The notes below the pieces were generated by a model. The model was not told the origin of the DNA and did no database searches. It saw only the letters and a list, made by a program, of their open reading frames with translations. The translations under genes were made by a program, and so were the position numbers. From NCBI GenBank assembly GCA_044869275.1, contig JBIOXB010000075.1, positions 13,120-77,119 of the forward strand: 64,000 bases of DNA, given 5' to 3'. This stretch comes from a bacterium. GTDB taxonomy: Bacteria > Zhuqueibacterota > Zhuqueibacteria > Zhuqueibacterales > Zhuqueibacteraceae. This document shows positions 52,506 to 63,739 of the stretch, piece by piece; the first letter of the stretch is position 1, and each line of letters starts with the position of its first letter.

Positions 52506-53996
52506 TCAGTCTATTTCGATTTCCTTGTGTTCCGAGCCGTCAAAAGCCAGCAATGCTTTATTCTCATCCACCATCGTTTCCAAATTCACCGGGCGCGACC
52601 ACACCGCATAAAGATTGCGCAGCGTGTCGCGCGCCTCGTCGAGCTTGAGATCGATGCCTTCGTGCTGGTGCCGCAAATAGAGCTCGCCGCGATTGCGATA
52701 ATTGGATTCTTCCACATAAATGAACGGCTGGCCGTGGTTCGTGAGCAGAAACAGCAGCTTTTGCTTGATGGCTTTGAACTCGCGGTCCGAAATCTCGTAC
52801 ATGCCGTTGCGCTCATTGTAATCAAACACGAACATTCTGTGCTCGCGACAGAATTCCGGCGTCAGAAATGCGTCGATGAAGGTGACGTCGTTGTAAAGCT
52901 TGCGCACTTCGAAAATTTTTTGCCGGCCCAGGCCGGTTTCTCTATTCCAGTTCTTTTTGGTGGCAAAATCGTCGCATTCTTCATATTCCTTGCCGAACCT
53001 GCCCTTGTTCCAACGCTCTTCGATGTCGCGAAACAGCTCGATGCCGAGCTTGTAGGGATTCAGCCGTCCCGGGCTGGTGAATAATGTGCCGGAGTGATGA
53101 TCGGCATAGTCGATCACTTCCGCGTCAGTGAGAATGCGCTCGGTCATCATTTTCGAGTGCCAGTAGCTCGCCCAGCCCTCGTTCATGATTTTAGTCTGGC
53201 CTTGCGGCGCAAAGTAATACGCTTCTTCCCGCACCATATCGAGCACGTCGCGCTGCCATTTTTCCAGGGGCGCATATTCGATCAGAAACTTCAAAACATC
53301 GCGTTGCGATTTTTCCGGATGCTTACGATGGCGCTCGCCGTTTTTCTTTTCCTGCTTTTGCCTTTCTGCCGCCAGCACCTCCGGCGGATTGATGTAATCT
53401 TCCAAATAATCCTTCGGGCTTTTGAACCGCGCCGAGGGCGGCTCGAGCGACGGCACCTCTTCCGCCAAACCGTCTTTGCCGTTTTCCTTGCCCATGAACG
53501 GCAGATGCGGGTCAATCAAATTCTCCAGCGAGAGGCAAACATCAACGAAGTTTTCCACTTTGTCTTCGCCGTATTGCTCGGCATACCGCCGAATGCGCGT
53601 GGCGTGGTTCGCCATTTCATCCATCATCTTGCGATTGGTGGGCGCAAACCACAGGTTGTTCTTGAAAAAATCGCAATGGCCATAAACGTGTGCCATCACC
53701 AGCTTTTGATCGACGATATTGTTGCAGCGCATCAAATACGCATAGCAGGGATCGTTGTTGATCACCATCTCGTAAATCTTCGACAAGCCGTAGGAATAGC
53801 TCTTGGCCAATTCCTCATATTCCATGCCAAAGCGCCAATGCGGATAGCGCGTGGGAAATCCCCCGAAACTGGCGATCTCGTTGAGCTCGTCGAATTCCAC
53901 GACTTCGAAAACCGTCTCAAAAAAATCCAGGCCATACTCGCGCGCAAAGCCGCGAATTTCATCTTTAAAGGCGGAAAGTTCAGGCGTCAGACTCAT
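52506..53996 (-). CDS. spoVR: SpoVR/YcgB family protein
   Basis: [59 protein letters not shown]. Confidence 0.93.
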
Positions 53997-54039
53997 GGGT
54001 CCGTTTCTTTTTTGACGAATAAGTACTCTCAAGAAGACC

Positions 54040-54212
54040 GGGAGAGTGGGAGACGGGGTGACTGGGAGACAGGGTGACTGGGAGAGGGGGTGACGGGGAG
54101 AGGCGAAGCAAGGATCGCACTCTAATCTCCCACTCTCCGTGTCTCCCCGTCACCCAGTCACCTCGTCTCCCCGTCTCCCACTCACCCCGTCTCCCACTCA
54201 CCCCACTCACTC
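54040..54212. repeat. Octamer tandem repeats (GGG[A/T]GA[C/G]N) in two inverted arms
   Basis: About 8 units such as gggagagt/gggagacg/gggtgact, then about 10 reverse-complement units such as cgtctccc/actcaccc. Confidence 0.85.
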
Positions 54213-54217
54213 CACAC

Positions 54218-55324
54218 CTACTTCCCTTTTCCTAAAAACTCCTTGATCGATTTATAGATCGATTCCTTGTCTGTTATTTCAGACAACACCAGCTTCTCTT
54301 CGCTCTCAAAATAATCTTCCAAATCGCGAATAAATTGGCCGCTGCCGTACGGGCTTTCGACCTGGCCGTAGCAGAACAAATTCGCGGCTGGAATCAGCTG
54401 ATTTTCGAGAATGTTGATGCATTCATCCGTATCGATCTCGCCCCAATTGTCGCCGTCGGAAAAATGCATCAAATAAATGTTCCAGTCCTCGGGAGTGTAC
54501 TCCTCGGAAATGATTTTGGCGGCCAGCTTGTACGCCGAGGAGATGATGGTGCCGCCGCTTTCACGCGTGTGATAAAACGTTTCCTGATCCACCTCGCGTG
54601 CCACCGCGTCGTGAATGACATAGCGCGTTTCCAAATTCTTGTATTGATAATGCAGCCAGGTGTCGATCCAAAACGATTCGATGCGCACGATTTCTTTCTG
54701 CTCGTCGCCCATGCTGCCGGAAACGTCCATCATGTATATGATCACCGCATTCGCTTCGGGCAGTTGCACGGTTTTCCACGTGCGATAACGCCGGTCTTCG
54801 CGATACGGCACGATGATGGGATCGTCGGGATTGTAACTGCCGCTGATGAGCTGCCGTTTCAGCGCCTGCTTATATGTACGCTTGAAATGGCGCAACGTTT
54901 CCGGGCCGCTTTTGCTGATGCCGGTGTAGCGGTCTTTTTCGCTGATGATGTTCTTTTTGCCTTTGGGCGAAATATTGGGCAGCTCCAGCTCTTCGCCCAG
55001 CAATTGCGCCAGCTCTTCGATCGGCAGATCGACTTCCAAGATATGCTCGCCCGGAGCCTCACCGGCCTGGCGGGAGCCATCACCATCATCGCCGCGGCCG
55101 ATGGGCGTACCCACGTCACCGTCGCCCTGGCCCACGCCGCCGGTGTTGCGGCCGCCGTAGCGAAAACGTGGGATGTCGATCTGCGGCACGGGAATACTGA
55201 CCAGATCTTTTCCCTTTTTGCCGATCATCTCGCCGCGCGTGATGTACTTGCGCAGTTCCTTCTTGATCTGCCCGCGCAAAATCTGCCGGAATCGGCTGCG
55301 ATCTTTTTCGATGCGTTTGACCAT
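54218..55324 (-). CDS. yeaH: YeaH/YhbH (DUF444) vWA-like protein
   Basis: [36 protein letters not shown]; lies between prkA and spoVR. Confidence 0.9.
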
Positions 55325-55398
55325 AGTTCAGCCACCAAACAAATCCAAAACTCAAAGCTCAAAGTGGTTTTTGGATTTTGTGCATTGCGTTTTGGATT

Positions 55399-57480
55399 TC
55401 AGCGGTGCTTCACATCCCCGCGCGCAAAAATGCTGGCCACGTAATTCAGCACGTCCGTCGCGCTTTCGTCATTATAGCCATAATACTTGATCATACGCGA
55501 TTTCACTACGTCGATCTTTTCCTGTGTTTCTTTATCCACCACGCTGGAAATGAGGGTCGTGAGTTTGATCGTATCTTTTTGATCCTCAAACAGCTTTAAT
55601 TCAAGTGCTTTTTGCAGGCGTTCGTTGCTCTTGTAATCGAAGGTCTTGCCTTCCAGGGCCAAGGCACCGATGTAGTTCATAATCTCGCGCCGGAAATCGT
55701 CCTTCCGGCTTTCTGGAATGTCGATTTTCTCTTCGATCGCGCGCATCAGGCGTTCATCCGGTTCTTCGTCTGCGCCGGTGAATTTGTTTTTCACGCGTTC
55801 GCGCTGGGTGTAGGCCTTGACGTTGTCGATGTAATTGCCGCACAGGCGTTTCAACGCGTCTTCGTCCGCGGCGATCGCGCGCTGCACCTCGTTCTTCACA
55901 ATGTCCTCGTATTCTTCCTTCACCACCGCGAGTAATTCTTTGTAACGTTTGCGCAGCTCGTCACTGCTGATCAGCGAATGATGCTTGATGCCCGATTCCA
56001 GCTCATTCATTACCATGAAAGGGTTGATGCTGGTCGCGCTCTTCTCGCTCACCAGCGCATTGGAGATTTTATCCTGCACATAGCGCGGCGAGATGCCTTC
56101 CATGCCTTCGCGGCCGGCGTCGGCGCGCAATTCTTTGATGTTGTCTTCGGTGAAGCCCGGCAGGGTTTTACCGTTGTAAAGTTTCAGCTTTTGCAGCAGA
56201 GTCAATTGCGCTTTCCTCGGATCTTCCAAGCGCGTCAGCACCGCCCACATGGCCGCCATCTCGATGGTATGCGGCGCAATGTGTTTGCCCTTGATGCGCT
56301 TGGGGTTGTAATCCTTGGCGTAAATTTTGATCTCGTCGTTGAGCTTGGTGATGTAAGGCACGTCGATCTTTACCGTGCGGTCGCGCAACGCTTCCATGTA
56401 TTCGTTCGACATCAGCTTGCGATATTCCGGCTCGTTGGTGTGACCGATGATCACCTCGTCGATATCGGTCTGCGCGAATTTTTTCGGTTTAATCTTGTGC
56501 TCTTGCGACGCGCCCAGCAGATCATAAAGGAAGGCCACGTCCAACTTCAAGACTTCGATGAACTCGATCAAGCCGCGATTGGCGATATTGAACTCGCCGT
56601 CGAAATTGAATGCGCGCGCATCCGATTCCGAGCCATACTCCGCGATTTTGCGGTAATTGATATCCCCCGTCAATTCCGTGGAATCCTGGTTCTTCTCGTC
56701 TTTGGGCTGAAACGTGCCGATCCCGACGCGATCTTTTTCCGATAACAGCAGGCGCTCGACGCGAATGTCCTGCAATAAATCTCCCCAGGCGCCGTCGTAC
56801 TTGCGGATATGCTCCCGGTACATCTGCCGGCAAAACGGGCACAGCTCGCCGGTGATGTTGATGTGCTGATCGGCAGGCTTGCCCTGGTTGAGCATCTCCA
56901 ACAGCTTGGGCCGCAGCTCTTCCGGCACCAAATGCAGCGGCTCTTCGTGCATCGGGCATTTCATCCAGGTCGCTTCGCCGTCTATCTCTTGCTTCCAGGC
57001 GAAGGTATAGAGCGCCCCTTCCGGCTTGCGCGAATAGTGCTCGACGCCCTTTTTGAGAAGGCGCACGATGGTGCTTTTCGAGCTGCCCACCGGTCCGTGC
57101 AACAACAGCACGCGTTTTTCCGTGCCATAGCCCTGGGCAGCGGCTTTGAAAAAACTGACGATGCGCATCAGTGTGCGATCCAACCCATACACCGCATCGC
57201 GGCCGTCTTCAAAGGGATCGTCGAAGAATTTGTAGTGTATCAGCTTTTCTTTGAATTCCACCACTTCTTCAGTGCCGTACGCGAGGATCATGTCGTAAAT
57301 GCGCTCGAAAGCCGTGCGCGTGATCGTGGGCTGGCGCTGGACCACGGCAAGATATTCTTCAAACCTGCCTTGCCATGTCAACTCGCGGTACGACGCGGTG
57401 TCCTGTATTTTGCTCAAAGCTGCAACGATGCCATCCGAGAGCGCAGAAGTAGAAATTGGCCGCGAAGTTTCTGTATTCAT
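55399..57480 (-). CDS. prkA: PrkA/YeaG family AAA+ serine protein kinase
   Basis: [49 protein letters not shown] before ATG 57480. Confidence 0.93.
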
Positions 57481-57964
57481 GAATCGAACCTCCATTTCAC
57501 TATGGTGTGCAGATGAAAACGAAAGCGACGTCGCTTGGGAGATGAGGGCTGACGCCGGAGCGGCTGCAGAAATGATGCGAAGCCCTGGCGTTCACCATTG
57601 CACGCCCGCTCCACTTTGGAATAATGTCAACGTAAGCTAACGACTGGGTTGCGGTAGGATCGAATAACATCGAGCCAAATTGTCAGCTCGATTACAAGAG
57701 GTCGTATGAACGGCAGAGCCCTCTGCCTCAACTTAAATAGGAAGATGTTTGATCACCCGGACAATTCCGTGCCCTCTCGTCCTGAAGCGCTCCGGCCTGT
57801 CATGGCTCGTAATCAAGAGGTGATAGTCTCAATTATGGAGATTTGCAACTTCGCTCACGCCGCCGCACGGCCCAAACGAGCGGCATCGTGACGAGTCGTC
57901 AAAGAACATGACCTCAAACCACCTCACAACAATCGAATCAAACGAAGTCCGAATCTCCCAAGAC

Positions 57965-58273: not shown

Positions 58274-58954
58274 TCAGCTATGGTTGTTCCAGGTTATAGG
58301 CTTGCTTTTAGAGTCCCGTTCTTGAACGCAATAGCAAAACAAATTTCCTTCGCCAACAGTAATGGCAAATTCATGAGCCAGTGCTTCATTGCTCAAGCCG
58401 TCGCGCACACCCCATTCCAAATCTTCCTGCTGAAGCGGATATTTCAAGCCTTCAGTCACGATGCCGCGCACGCGCCGGAACGCGAGCAAGGAAATTTGCT
58501 GTCCGGCAAAAGATTCGAAGCGCGCTCGTGCGGGCCGGTCCGTGGCGTGGATGAAACTGCCGATGCCAAAATCGTCGTAGATTTCCAATGTCAGCCGATC
58601 GCAAAATTTTTCGGCAATATTGATATTGACGAGCTGGTGATCGAAACGCAAGCCGGTGATACCCACGAGAAGTGCGTGTTGGATTTCTTGTTCCAGGGCG
58701 AATGCCAGCGTTTTTTCCAGGTCCGTGGCGTGCTGGCTCGGGCGATAGATGAACCGCGCTGACGCATAGGCACGGCGCGTGTCTGCGGTAACCGAATCGA
58801 AATCGCCGACGATATACTGCGGCTCCAATCCTGCCGCGCGTGCGCGGTTTGCTCCGCCGTCGGCGCAAATGATGACTTCAGCGCGGGCCGCGCAAGCCGC
58901 GAGTATCTCGGCCGCGGGCAGCAAGCCGTTGGCAATGACCAGGGCGGTTTTCAT
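58274..58954 (-). CDS. thiN: Thiamine pyrophosphokinase
   Basis: ICADGGAN, VGDFDS, TDLEK, G..G.RFDH, GLKYPL, GLSNE; overlaps the TonB receptor stop. Confidence 0.92.
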   Translation of the reverse strand: MKTALVIANGLLPAAEILAACAARAEVIICADGGANRARAAGLEPQYIVGDFDSVTADTRRAYASARFIYRPSQHATDLEKTLAFALEQEIQHALLVGITGLRFDHQLVNINIAEKFCDRLTLEIYDDFGIGSFIHATDRPARARFESFAGQQISLLAFRRVRGIVTEGLKYPLQQEDLEWGVRDGLSNEALAHEFAITVGEGNLFCYCVQERDSKSKPITWNNHS

Positions 58955-61467
58955 CGTTCATACCTCGCATTCACAAAAAACTGCCTCTCAGCCGCCGGAA
59001 AAAAATCCTCACCTTCTCCGTGCAAAACGTAAAGCTTGTCGAAAATGTTCTGCACATGCAATTGCAGCGTCAAGCCGAGGTGCGCGAAAGCATATCCCGC
59101 AGCGCCGTGGAACACCGTGTAGGCATCGACGACATTTTCACGGGGTTCACCGAAAATCTCGGGAGAGCGGTCACCGAAATTGTCCGTGTATTTTTGGCCG
59201 CTATGCTGCATGGCAAGTGAAGCGTTAAAGCCCCCCAGCAAAAAGCTGAGCCGCGCATTCGCCAGGAAATCCGGAAAGCCGGCGATGGGATTGCCGTCCA
59301 GCGGCACGCCGGTGTGGGCGCTGTCGTCCAGGAAGATGGCGTATTCCTTCAATTCGTTGTGGCTAGACATCAGGCTGCCGCTGCACCTCAGCCAGGGAAG
59401 CGGCTGGACTTCGGCTTCAAACTCCATTCCGGTGTGCAGGGTGCGCTCGGCATTGCCCGTCACCGGCTGGCCGAAGCGATCCAATTGACCGCTATTGATG
59501 ATCTCGTCCTTGAAATCCATGTAGAAAAAGTTGAGTGCCACGCGCCATGCCTTGCGACGATAGCTCAATCCGGCTTCGTAATCATACAACTTTTCAGGAT
59601 GCACCAGTGGCCGGTCGAAAGCATAGCTGCCATCAGGTGCGCGCTCGAATTGCGGCTCGACCGCGCCCCAGCTCGCCGGCGTGCTCGCTTCGGCAGCGTC
59701 GTAAAAATTCTTCAAACGCGGCTCCCGGCTGGTGCGCGCGAAGCTGGCGTAGGCATTGAGCTGTTCGTTCATATTATAATTCAAGCCCAAACGCGGATTC
59801 CAAAAATGATACCGCAGCGTGAAATCGGTGTCGAGGAATTCTTCATCATATAAGCGGTATTTGAGATTGACGAATTGCAGATCGAAGTTGAGATTCAAGT
59901 TGCGGCGCAGCCGGTAATTGGCGTGCACATAAGGCGAAATGATGTCCTTGGCGCCACGATACTCGTAATAGCGTCGCGTCCCGATGTAGTTGTGGCCGCT
60001 GTATTCGCCTGAAACCGCCGGCGGCAAAGCATCGTCGCCGGTTTGAATGCGACCCCAGTGCAGCGAACGATGCCGCCGCAGCTCAGCGCCAAACACGGTT
60101 TCGCCGCGCCCGTGTTGCCAGGTCAATTGCGGCAGCCAGCCAATTTGCTTGTTGTCAACGTAAGCACGAATCAGCACGCTATCGACAAAAACTTCTTCGG
60201 GGTTGCCGCTCACCTCAAAGCCGTATTCCGGGGCCAGGCGAAAGTAGGACAGCGGCGCCCAATTGCCGTTGTAATCGAAGAAGCCGTAGCCGCGTATGCC
60301 AAACCACGTGTTGCTCAAACACAAATCTTTGTTCAGGCGATATTCGTTGAGAAGCTGGAGCTGCGGCTGATTGAAGTTCTCCAGTTCATCCGGCCGCAGG
60401 ATGGGATTCTGCCGCCGCGCGCCGCGACGCAAGGTCGAGTCTTTGGGAATGCCGTAGTAGGCGAGGTGATCCGCAATCGGTCCGCCGTAGAGATGCACGC
60501 GCGTAATCGACTTCTCGCTGACGTGCGCCGCGCCGACGAAATAACTTTTCAAATCGGCCCAGGCGCGCTCGCGATACCCCTCGCTGCGAATGCGCGAGAA
60601 TCTGCCGAACAGCAAAAACTTCCGCGCGAGCCAGCCGCTGTGCAGCGCGAGGGAATATTTGCGCGTACCGTACGTGCCGCTGCCGGCATAAGCTTCGATC
60701 TTCGCACGCGGGGAAAAATTGGCGGTCGAGACATTGACTGAACCGCCGATCGCCGGCGGACCGTAGAACGCGCTGCCCGCGCCGCGCTGCACTTGCACGT
60801 CTGCGGTGTTGCCTAACAAGTCAGGGAAATCGATCCAATACACGTTGTGATCCTCGGGATCGTTCTGCGGTACGCCGTTGATCAGGACGGAAATACGGCG
60901 CTGGTCAAAACCGCGAATGGCAAGGTAATTGTAACCAATGCCATTGCCGCTTTCAGAATAAAAAGTCGCCGAGGGCAGCTCGCTGAGTATGGCGGGAATG
61001 TCCTGCGTGAAATAGCGCTGCTGCAAATCAGCAGGCGTGATCGTGGAAAACGCCACCGGGCTTTCACGCTCGCGGGCACGGGTGGCCAGCACAATGACGG
61101 CGGGACTGGTCAACGCATGCGGTTGCAAGCGAATGACCACGTGTGTTTCGGGTGGCTGGATTTCGAGCGCGAGGCTTTGGCTGGCATAACCGATGAAGCT
61201 GGCAATCAATGTGGCGCGCCCGGCCGGAATGCTGTGCAACTGAAAATTCCCCTGTGGATCGCTGACCACGCCCTGCGTGGTTCCGGCAATCACAATATTG
61301 CAAGCCTTGAGCGGTGCGCCCGATTGCGCATCATACACGGTGCCGCGGATGGTGGCAGTTTCCTGCGCCAGCGTTTGCGCCGGCCACCAGCAGCTTGAAA
61401 GGGCAGCCATGCCCGCAACCAGCAGCCGGCAGCGGGCAGCGGGTCTCCGGCAAAACATAGTTCTCAT
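58951..61467 (-). CDS. TonB-dependent receptor, probably thiamine uptake
   Basis: CarboxypepD-like N-terminus, plug IRGFDQRRI.V.INGVP.ND, QVQRG, beta-barrel; directly downstream of a TPP riboswitch. Confidence 0.9.
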   Translation of the reverse strand: MRTMFCRRPAARCRLLVAGMAALSSCWWPAQTLAQETATIRGTVYDAQSGAPLKACNIVIAGTTQGVVSDPQGNFQLHSIPAGRATLIASFIGYASQSLALEIQPPETHVVIRLQPHALTSPAVIVLATRARERESPVAFSTITPADLQQRYFTQDIPAILSELPSATFYSESGNGIGYNYLAIRGFDQRRISVLINGVPQNDPEDHNVYWIDFPDLLGNTADVQVQRGAGSAFYGPPAIGGSVNVSTANFSPRAKIEAYAGSGTYGTRKYSLALHSGWLARKFLLFGRFSRIRSEGYRERAWADLKSYFVGAAHVSEKSITRVHLYGGPIADHLAYYGIPKDSTLRRGARRQNPILRPDELENFNQPQLQLLNEYRLNKDLCLSNTWFGIRGYGFFDYNGNWAPLSYFRLAPEYGFEVSGNPEEVFVDSVLIRAYVDNKQIGWLPQLTWQHGRGETVFGAELRRHRSLHWGRIQTGDDALPPAVSGEYSGHNYIGTRRYYEYRGAKDIISPYVHANYRLRRNLNLNFDLQFVNLKYRLYDEEFLDTDFTLRYHFWNPRLGLNYNMNEQLNAYASFARTSREPRLKNFYDAAEASTPASWGAVEPQFERAPDGSYAFDRPLVHPEKLYDYEAGLSYRRKAWRVALNFFYMDFKDEIINSGQLDRFGQPVTGNAERTLHTGMEFEAEVQPLPWLRCSGSLMSSHNELKEYAIFLDDSAHTGVPLDGNPIAGFPDFLANARLSFLLGGFNASLAMQHSGQKYTDNFGDRSPEIFGEPRENVVDAYTVFHGAAGYAFAHLGLTLQLHVQNIFDKLYVLHGEGEDFFPAAERQFFVNARYER

Positions 61468-61590
61468 CACCTCTCCTCCACAAAATAAAAAACCGCATTC
61501 CCGATTTTCCACCGCGCGCGGGAAGCGGCTGCGTGAAGGCATGACGCCGGAGAAGCATGAAAGCTGCAATTCGACTCGTCACAACCACGA

Positions 61591-61670
61591 CCGTTTCCCT
61601 ACGCCGGCATCATCCGGTTCAGGTTCCAAGGGTATTTTCTCAGTCCCGCATCGCGGGACACCCCTAACGG
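61591..61670 (-). ncRNA. TPP riboswitch (THI element)
   Basis: Minus strand GGGGTG...CTGAGAaaATACCC..GAACCTGA..GGATGATGCCGGCGTAGGGAA with closing ccgtt/aacgg stem. Confidence 0.95.
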
Positions 61671-61785
61671 AGTGATCAAAAGATATGGCAATGCCGGAGA
61701 AAAACCAAACAGAAAATCGCAGTTGTAAATTTGCGAGAATCTTTGCATTATGCCATTGGCGGAAATGAATGAAGGAGGTAAAACA

Positions 61786-62427
61786 ATGCCAGGCTTGTTT
61801 GATAAAGTTGCCAAAGACCTGCAGAACGGTTTTCTCACCCTGTCCGAGAAGGCCGCGGAATGGGTCAAAACCGGCACGGAAGCTTTGCGCGGGGGAATGG
61901 AGGTGGCTTCGACCAAAGCGACTTATGCCTCGAGGTTGGCCAAGCTCAAATGGGAGCAAAACGTTCTGCAACGCGAGATCGAAAAGGCGTTCACGGCGCT
62001 GGGCGGGCAAGCGTACGAGCTCTTCGCCGCCGGGCAATTGCAGGAATTGGGGACGCGAGCGCAGGATAAACTCGAACAATTGCGCAGCCTCGAACAGAAA
62101 CTGGAGGAAAAAGAAAAGGAAATCGAGATTCTTTCCAAAAACCTCAACTTCACCTCCACCGGCTCCTCAGATTTGAAAGATTTGCGGCAAGATATGGAAG
62201 GCGCCGGCGGCACGATCGTGCAAGTCACCATTGTGCCGAATTCCCCTGCCGCGCACAAAGCTTGCCGTGAAATCGCTGCCTCGCCGGATCTCATGATTGG
62301 TGCGATTCTGCGCGCAGACGAAATCGTCATTCCGACGCCAGATACGATTCTGCTGCCCGGCGATCGTGTGACTTTACTCGGCAGGAAAGAAGCGGTGCAG
62401 CAAGCCGCGCAGATGCTGGCAGGCTGA
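61786..62427 (+). CDS. Coiled-coil protein with C-terminal TrkA-C (RCK_C) domain
   Basis: V.I.PNSPAA.K...IGAILR....IP.PDT.L.PGDRV; RBS AAGGAGG. Confidence 0.8.
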   Translation: MPGLFDKVAKDLQNGFLTLSEKAAEWVKTGTEALRGGMEVASTKATYASRLAKLKWEQNVLQREIEKAFTALGGQAYELFAAGQLQELGTRAQDKLEQLRSLEQKLEEKEKEIEILSKNLNFTSTGSSDLKDLRQDMEGAGGTIVQVTIVPNSPAAHKACREIAASPDLMIGAILRADEIVIPTPDTILLPGDRVTLLGRKEAVQQAAQMLAG

Positions 62428-62563: not shown

Positions 62564-63739
62564 ATGACTTACGTCCAAGAATCCTACCCTCTCGCAGCAG
62601 ACGACATCCTCTGCAGTTATCATGTTGAACCCGCCAGCGGCAAAAGTATTTTGCCGAGCATCGAAGAGTTGTGCAAAAAGGCCTCCGTGGATTTCGTGGG
62701 TGGCGCGCTCATCCGCGATTTCGCCGCGCACGCTTATCAGATCAGCGAGCAAAATGTCAAAGTGGCGTTCCCCGCGGGCCTTTTTGAAGACGGCAACATC
62801 CCGCATTTGCTCACCATCGTGGCGGGAAAAATTTTCGGTCTGGAGAAGATCGCGAGCCTGCGCTTGCAGGACATTCGTTTCCCGCCCTCGTGGCTCAAGA
62901 CTTTTCGCGGCCCGGCTTTTGGCAGTTCTTTAATTGAGAAAGTTTTTGACAGCCCGTCGCGGCCGCTGGTTTCTTCCTTGATCAGTCCCGAAGTCGGCCT
63001 CGATCTCAAAACATATCAAGGAAAAGCCGAGGCCTCGTTCTTGGGTGGCTGTGACATTGTGCGCGATAGCCCGCAAATCAATAACAAAATCATTTCTTTT
63101 GAGAAACGCGTGGAGGCGATGCTGGGCTTGGCCGACGCCTGCTCGCAAAAAACCGGCATGCCGAAAATGTTCTTCCCCAATGTCAGCGGTCCGGGCGATC
63201 TGGTGTTGCAGCGTATCGATTCTGTCGTCAAAAAAGGCGGGCATGGCGCCGTGGTGAATTTTCAAGCGGCGGGATTCGGAATTTTGCAGATGGTGCGCAA
63301 CATGTTTCCAGAATTAATCGTTTATGCCGACCGCACTTCACATGCGGCGACCGCGCGCAACAAACGGCAGGGCATCTCCATGACCACGCTGGGCAAGCTC
63401 GCACGCGTCGCTGGCGCCGATTTGGTGGAGATCGGCTCCATAACGGGTGACATGGTCGAAAACGAAGCGCATGTCGTGCAATTGCATGCCAACTTGCTGG
63501 CAGATATTTTCAAGACACGCGATCCCGATCGTTTCGATCAGGATTGGCAGGGTCTGGGTAACAGCTTACCCGTCACCTCCGGCGGGCTGACCGCCGAAGA
63601 CATTCGCGAATTGCGGCATCGCTTTGGCAATCACCTGGTGCTGCAATTCGGACGCAGCATGACCGGAAAAGAGAAAGTCACGCGGCAGCACGTGGAAAAA
63701 TTTCTGGATGAGCTTGGCCCACTCGTGCCGCTGGTATAG
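62564..63739 (+). CDS. RuBisCO large-subunit homolog (form III-like) with degenerate active site
   Basis: LFE.GNIP.LL...AG.IFG, LRL.DI.FP, F.GP.FG, RPL, GG.D..RD, RNKR.GISM..LGKLAR..G.D, QDW.GL...LPV.SGGL. Confidence 0.85.
   Translation: MTYVQESYPLAADDILCSYHVEPASGKSILPSIEELCKKASVDFVGGALIRDFAAHAYQISEQNVKVAFPAGLFEDGNIPHLLTIVAGKIFGLEKIASLRLQDIRFPPSWLKTFRGPAFGSSLIEKVFDSPSRPLVSSLISPEVGLDLKTYQGKAEASFLGGCDIVRDSPQINNKIISFEKRVEAMLGLADACSQKTGMPKMFFPNVSGPGDLVLQRIDSVVKKGGHGAVVNFQAAGFGILQMVRNMFPELIVYADRTSHAATARNKRQGISMTTLGKLARVAGADLVEIGSITGDMVENEAHVVQLHANLLADIFKTRDPDRFDQDWQGLGNSLPVTSGGLTAEDIRELRHRFGNHLVLQFGRSMTGKEKVTRQHVEKFLDELGPLVPLV

Follow-up and report, generated by a model that had tools for sequence, protein, structure and literature searches.

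Archaeal form III-b RuBisCO, an enzyme of the AMP/pentose-bisphosphate pathway, is represented by the structures 6HUN and 8DHT and by the DPANN form III-b sequences of PMC6389311. Form IV RuBisCO-like proteins (RLPs; MtnW, OiaX, IV-Photo and others) have the RuBisCO fold without carboxylation. PMC6389311 also describes, after Wrighton 2016, a 'form III-like' clade of CPR and DPANN organisms, and form I/I' RbcL is known from the Zhuqueibacterales (PMC11683472, accessible part). P0001, a RuBisCO homologue encoded in the 64,000-nt stretch of DNA analysed here (the window), can be compared with each of these. It has the fold in common with archaeal form III-b and is predicted to dimerise in a similar way. 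In contrast to that enzyme, its family has a bacterial host, 15 of 22 active-site residues replaced, and a shorter 60s loop and C-terminus, and neither AMP phosphorylase nor R15P isomerase scored over its cut-off in any of the 19 genomes of the GTDB family; an AMP-phosphorylase match in genome G000 was rejected as a pyrimidine-nucleoside phosphorylase. With form IV the family shares a RuBisCO fold and, almost certainly, the absence of carboxylation. However, K175 and D203 are present in 22/22 and K201 in 21/22 of the form IV rows aligned (rows chosen partly for intactness), whereas the P0001 family has none of the three, and the AU test rejects a common grouping, pointing to a separate origin. 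The 'form III-like' clade of PMC6389311 is likewise a divergent form III relative found in bacteria, but it is reported from CPR/DPANN alone, with predicted activity in the AMP pathway, whereas the P0001 family belongs to KSB1 and lacks the catalytic set. The label 'form III-like' should be avoided for P0001, since that source uses it for the CPR/DPANN clade predicted active. The form I/I' RbcL of the Zhuqueibacterales comes from the same host order, and two genomes hold both proteins; P0001 differs in being 27-30% identical to them and in having no rbcS or PRK linkage.

No description of the P0001 clade was found in a literature search whose coverage took in few subscription papers. In their accessible text, PMC12663927 filters ~5,000 RLPs out of its survey, and the Korarchaeota preprint 10.1101/2023.09.28.559970 mentions ordinary form III alone. 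As far as searched, the clade is undescribed; it would not count as form III in function, and by descent it does not belong to form IV. Form IV relatives mostly keep the lysine-carbamate metal site; the P0001 clade would be a second repurposing, this time from a true carboxylase.

The gene and its surroundings in the window are as follows.

52506-57495, minus strand: three-gene run with the appearance of PrkA/YeaG kinase, YeaH and SpoVR, recognised by eye
58274-58954, minus strand: thiamine diphosphokinase, downstream of the TPP riboswitch
58951-61569, minus strand: TonB-dependent receptor, downstream of the TPP riboswitch
61579-61675, minus strand: TPP riboswitch (75.2 bits)
61786-62427, plus strand: coiled-coil helical protein with a TrkA-C domain, upstream of P0001
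62553-62557, plus strand: Shine-Dalgarno-like AGGAG, read from the sequence, with the ATG 6 nt downstream
62564-63739, plus strand: RuBisCO homologue gene (P0001), 391 aa, intact ORF, most likely form III-derived and almost certainly non-carboxylating

The initial annotation had reported a full ORF with a ribosome-binding site and no adjacent AMP phosphorylase or R15P isomerase. Both observations hold: the 391-aa frame is intact with AGGAG 6 nt before its ATG, and neither enzyme gene was found next to P0001 in the window or up to the contig end, which lies 261 nt 3' of the stop and cuts off the downstream context in this genome. P0001 matches both RuBisCO Pfam domains, the N-domain and the (beta/alpha)8 barrel. 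Its best family model is TIGR03326, form III, at 236.5 bits, far below the cut-off of 497, and in the ESM Atlas it retrieved generic RuBisCO clusters alone. A promoter and terminator scan around the gene gave a result at chance level. In one RNA run (0.10 share), contigs of depth ~2 touch the upstream gene and, at 88% identity, the 5' end of P0001, possibly by DNA carry-over. The N-terminal part of the upstream coiled-coil/TrkA-C protein matched no known family, and an ESM Atlas search with this protein returned nothing above 0.77. In genus g3 the upstream gene product is 135 aa long, has no TrkA-C domain and is encoded ~20 nt 5' of the RuBisCO homologue. The TPP riboswitch, receptor and diphosphokinase are likely a thiamine uptake unit, divergent from the gene upstream of P0001.

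To describe the former active site we give P0001 positions with the spinach RuBisCO equivalent in brackets, and conservation is counted over 48 full-length family sequences. All features are on the plus strand.

62678-62680, plus strand: K39 (E60), charge reversal, invariant (48/48)
62828-62830, plus strand: K89 (N123), K or R in every copy (R 25, K 23 of 48)
62984-62992, plus strand: S141-P142-E143 (K175-P176-K177), K175 gone and K177E invariant in the family alignment
63062-63076, plus strand: R167-D-S-P-Q171 (K201-D202-D203-E204-N205), carbamate Lys replaced by an invariant Arg, Mg ligands gone
63329-63343, plus strand: D256 (H294D, invariant), R257 (R295 kept) and H260 (H298 kept)
63428-63451, plus strand: E289 (H327E) to D296 (K334D), strand 6 and loop 6, invariant
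63578-63586, plus strand: S339-G340-G341 (S379-G381), retained and invariant
63653-63658, plus strand: R364-S365 (G404R, G405S), invariant, former P1 phosphate site
63716-63736, plus strand: C-terminal tail, residues 385-391, nearly invariant (88-98% conserved), end of the shortened C-terminus

Activated RuBisCO carries a K201 carbamate stabilised by Mg (PMC5786004, accessible part). At K201, D203 and E204 the family has R167, S/A169 and H/P/A170 in 48/48 sequences, and K175, K177, H294, H327, K334, E60 and N123 are every one replaced in the family alignment. The substitutions read by eye in the initial annotation (N123K, K175S/K177E, KDDE to RDSP, H294D, H327E, K334D, and AESS of active enzymes to KKAS in P0001) are all borne out by the alignment. 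Its statement that a single Asp is left of the Mg ligands and their neighbours also stands; this Asp is D202, so both ligands, D203 and E204, are gone. Its list, though correct, omitted G404R, G405S, a 60s loop that is 5 residues shorter and lacks T65/W66, a C-terminus ~21 residues shorter than in the nearest form III, and the seven sites that are kept. Measured against the 22 residues around CABP listed in the accessible part of PMC9570433, which we used as the published active-site set, P0001 retains seven: R295, H298, S379, G380, G381, F402 and G403. Seven replacements are fixed in 48/48 sequences (E60K, K177E, K201R, H294D, H327E, K334D and G404R), while the positions of K175, D203 and E204 drift within the same sequences.

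Invariance was compared over those positions at which the family departs from a set of 48 active enzymes; the sequences are related and the p-values are a guide only. With the published list, 7 of 15 changed active-site positions are invariant, against 27 of 230 other changed positions (p 0.0015). A separate 16-site list gives 7/11 against 27/234 (p 1.2e-4), and the strictest control, in which a position had to show conservation of at least 95% among the active enzymes, gives 7/13 against 2/17 (p 0.018). Codons vary synonymously at six of the seven fixed residues across 17 genomes; for R364, the 15 copies that extend over this site all use the same codon. The charge tally is balanced, with three Lys/Arg gains and K201R set against four Asp/Glu gains. 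As judged from these alignments, the pattern fixed at the former active site exceeds chance and the new residues appear to be under selection. RuBP carboxylation has almost certainly been lost in the family, and carbon fixation with it. Other degenerate form III-derived proteins (P0058, P0060, P0066 and P0114) are also without the catalytic residues, and share at most three of the seven fixed residues with the family; across 144 non-family sequences, no single one has more than three. Loss of the carbamate/Mg site thus recurs among form III-derived proteins, and it is the fixed charge-reversed set that distinguishes this family.

Further relatives of this kind were met in the course of the searches. 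P0058-P0206 include dozens of form III-related representatives without catalytic residues, of which P0114, P0115, P0134, P0143, P0150, P0167 and P0187 make up a well-supported clade. Several of these degenerate form III relatives, unrelated to one another, also have D-S-P at D202-E204. A RuBisCO-like protein of 575-580 aa (L036 in G063, and P0121) has K201R with D203 kept, a separate case of Arg at the carbamate position.

The nearest relatives of the family are intact form III enzymes at 30-35% identity, and all five tested score over the TIGR03326 cut-off; one cluster among them includes a Diapherotrites member. For the IQ-TREE analysis, 46 rows were chosen from 93 aligned and the degenerate rows were left out; the reference rows were assigned to forms by tree position, residues and HMM scores, in a set without labelled form I-alpha or III-like sequences. 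Under LG+C20+F+G4 the family falls within a group of form III-b rows (support 85/81); its stem is long, at 1.42 substitutions per site, and its crown is short. A forced grouping with form IV (8 rows) is rejected at p-AU 0.0095, a value that carries a long-branch caveat. Grouping with form I/I' is rejected less firmly (p-AU 0.036), which argues modestly against the family being a duplicate of the form I/I' RbcL of the order. FastTree placed the family beside other degenerate long branches, a position set aside as likely long-branch attraction. The tree placement and the AU rejections agree with the initial annotation in favouring form III over form IV descent. With the long stem as a caveat, the family most likely derives from archaeal form III-b, and gene transfer from an archaeon is likely.

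A protein search returned 50 close sequences, P0001 itself among them; 48 are full length, and identity to P0001 is 55-85%. In a library of 1.84 billion proteins the family makes up a single cluster scoring 748 bits, and the score falls to 260 for the match that follows. Named members are labelled candidate division KSB1, and the labels on relatives assign the host family to KSB1/Zhuqueibacterota. The gene is carried by 17 of the 19 genomes of the window's GTDB family. One of the two others (G010) is 82% complete and its contig stops just beyond the upstream gene. The second, G001, is congeneric and 99% complete; the sequence at its locus is unrelated, which likely reflects a true loss; the gene is therefore dispensable in that genome. 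RuBisCO-family matches occur in 27 of 167 genomes of the phylum, of which the 10 outside the GTDB family carry other forms (one partial copy being judged by 25% identity alone); no family gene was found outside its GTDB family among the 167. Neither 50,697 phage records nor viral contigs gave a match, and no fusion protein appeared among 8000 longer candidates, which is weak evidence.

The gene tree recovers genera g2, g3 and g4 as monophyletic, with the same branching as a uridine kinase tree, which indicates vertical descent. dN/dS is 0.094 across 17 genomes, and in the same 10 genomes it is 0.093 for the RuBisCO homologue and 0.056 for uridine kinase. Within-genus NG86 ratios are 0.035-0.15 (45 listed pairs of 136); between genera they reach 0.26-0.36, probably too high because dS is saturated. 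There are no internal stops in 17 copies, and 85 of 391 columns are invariant at 55-85% identity. The family is vertically inherited and under purifying selection. The low dN/dS and the presence in 17 of 19 genomes uphold the view of the initial annotation that this is a maintained protein.

We also looked for enzymes and partners with which the gene might be associated. Whole-genome tblastn in the window's genome finds P0001 itself alone, so the paralog check proposed in the initial annotation revealed no second RuBisCO; a PRK-family match there was rejected as uridine kinase. A second RuBisCO is absent from 15 of the 17 carriers, this genome included. Among the 19 family genomes, G002 and G006 alone carry another RbcL, which is intact and sits beside a gene of PRK length; PRK-length true matches number 2/19 and rbcS is present in 1/19. 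Across 38 partly redundant loci there is no universal neighbour and no recognisable pathway enzyme, and no enzyme or transporter neighbour recurs across lineages. The coiled-coil/TrkA-C gene is found at 11 and a SpoU methylase at 15 of these 38 loci. As an obligate partner the coiled-coil/TrkA-C gene was rejected: it occurs without the RuBisCO homologue in G001 and in the sister family, and the window's gene used as query is unmatched in seven of eight genus g2 genomes. In g2-type loci (L076-L082, L116-L129) the RuBisCO homologue lies next to a variable region whose genes include, as judged by eye, toxin-antitoxin-like and TIR-like ones. This suggests an insertion hotspot beside a stable gene.

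The AlphaFold2 model of P0001 (pLDDT 84.6) has TM 0.88-0.91 to form I/III structures and superimposes on 6HUN with TM 0.88, Z 42.8 and rmsd 2.8 Å over 384 residues; by this model, P0001 has the RuBisCO fold. The homodimer prediction scored 0.94, compared to 0.00 for the best of three controls, and contacts agreed by at least 97% between runs with pLDDT of at least 91; the mark applied is reached by 20 of 30 solved pairs and by 1 of 23 single chains. The dimer score may stem from likeness to solved RuBisCO dimers. The predicted interface includes residues 89, 141-147, 295-298 and 364, K39 not being among those named, and conservation there is no higher than elsewhere in the protein (0.77 vs 0.75, p 0.25).

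The evidence leans towards an archaeal form III that has been rewired by concerted charge reversal into a second, independent class of RLP, free of carbamate and Mg and acting either as a self-locked metabolite sensor or as an enzyme with unrelated chemistry, which would be the first on this fold. For the more specific proposal, that P0001 acts on its own as a homodimer without metal, its pocket shut by swapped ion pairs, and serves as a non-catalytic binder or sensor, we see about even chances. The ion pairs are inferred from the general geometry of RuBisCO. In RuBisCO, E60, K177 and K334 form one neighbouring group; the carbamate (K201) lies beside H294, with H327 at the P2 phosphate and G404 at P1. 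Across the dimer, K39 and K/R89 would form ion pairs with E143 and D296 of the opposite subunit, reversing the polarity of E60-K177-K334. The space once taken by metal and carbamate, next to D256, would be filled by R167; E289 would take the place of the P2 phosphate beside R257 and H260, and R364 would fill the P1 site. The pocket would change from strongly basic to roughly balanced in charge, and RuBP would therefore be excluded. A small site formed by R257, H260 and S339 may be left for an anion, a zwitterion or a peptide. The clade would represent a natural experiment on the capacities of the scaffold once its metal site is lost and the charges in its pocket are reversed.

Pseudoenzymes of bacteria are usually found together with an active partner, and the proposal of a closed, non-catalytic binder is weakened because most carriers have no active partner and no partner gene was found. 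It is weakened further because interface conservation is not raised and K39 is outside the named interface, because the nearly complete congener G001 does without the gene, and because invariant Asp, Glu, His and Arg at the barrel strand ends would equally mark an enzyme. P0001 may then be a rebuilt enzyme, a serious but less probable reading, in which D256, E289 and D296 (with H260) would make up a new centre, acid-base or metal, while an anionic substrate would be held by K39, K/R89, R167, R257 and R364, with chemistry unrelated to the carbamate mechanism of RuBisCO and RLPs. All of these residues are invariant or charge-invariant, the long stem and short crown fit a functional change with later freezing, selection is close to that on uridine kinase, and the gene is solitary, lacking an active partner that it might regulate. 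On the other hand, enzyme and transporter neighbours do not recur across lineages at the 38 loci, the replacements hit residues that are mutually adjacent in RuBisCO and their charges cancel, and both phosphate sites would be blocked by the bulky Arg at G404 and the acid at H327. The initial annotation's term 'pseudoenzyme' may not apply in the strict sense, because the invariant new Asp/Glu/Arg/Lys pocket set fits a rebuilt enzyme too.

It is improbable that P0001 is a structural or storage scaffold without a small ligand, with ion pairs stabilising a locked dimer or polymer, perhaps via the hydrophobic tail. Such a role would suit the strong predicted dimer and the 88-98% conservation of the tail, but the tail corresponds in the alignment to a hydrophobic stretch that form III conserves as well, and it may persist as a folding remnant; the kept R295, H298 and S379 suggest a ligand subsite. 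Hetero-oligomerisation with an active paralog, suggested in the initial annotation, has little in its favour. G002 and G006 do hold both the gene and an active RbcL with PRK, as would be expected of an inactive subunit or inhibitor co-assembling with active RuBisCO. However, most carriers, the window's genome among them, have no other RuBisCO, the sister family has active RbcL without the family gene, and the reversed charges across the dimer would probably repel a normal subunit; we regard this role as very improbable. A form IV-type enolase or isomerase, for instance of methionine salvage, seems slightly less probable again. MtnA-like isomerase genes are present in 18 of the 19 genomes (the G000 copy judged MtnA-like by eye), but in G000, 94% complete, no MtnB match reaches the cut-off and MtnC, MtnD and MtnX were not found, P0001 scores far under the cut-offs of the NCBIfam RLP models, K175, K201 and D203 are missing, and grouping with form IV is rejected. 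That P0001 is a decaying, functionless copy is scarcely credible: one complete congeneric genome lacks the gene, but the absence of internal stops, the low dN/dS and the 85 invariant columns speak against decay. Retained catalytic residues, membership of a characterised RLP clade, or a lone decaying copy with neutral dN/dS, which the initial annotation named as outcomes contrary to its reading, were none of them observed.

The P0001 protein can be expressed and screened directly, and the clade matters for RuBisCO annotation. PMC11683472 calls the rbcL of 35 Zhuqueibacterales genomes form I, and its Table S6 reports rbcL in 35/36, rbcS in 14/36 and PRK in 25/36 genomes, with 10 of the 35 rbcL-positive genomes lacking both rbcS and PRK. 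Some of these rbcL-only genomes may carry just the P0001 family protein; such mis-scoring is plausible because IMG labels many family copies 'ribulose-bisphosphate carboxylase large chain'. The RuBisCO complement of the order (L018-L025) is itself a patchwork, comprising a form I'-like protein with PRK and no rbcS (G006), form II (G023), form I with rbcS (G002, G024, G026 and G027) and extended form IV proteins (G020 and G026). Two further representatives, P0062 and P0063, are form III RuBisCOs fused to R15P isomerase, 726-742 aa in length.
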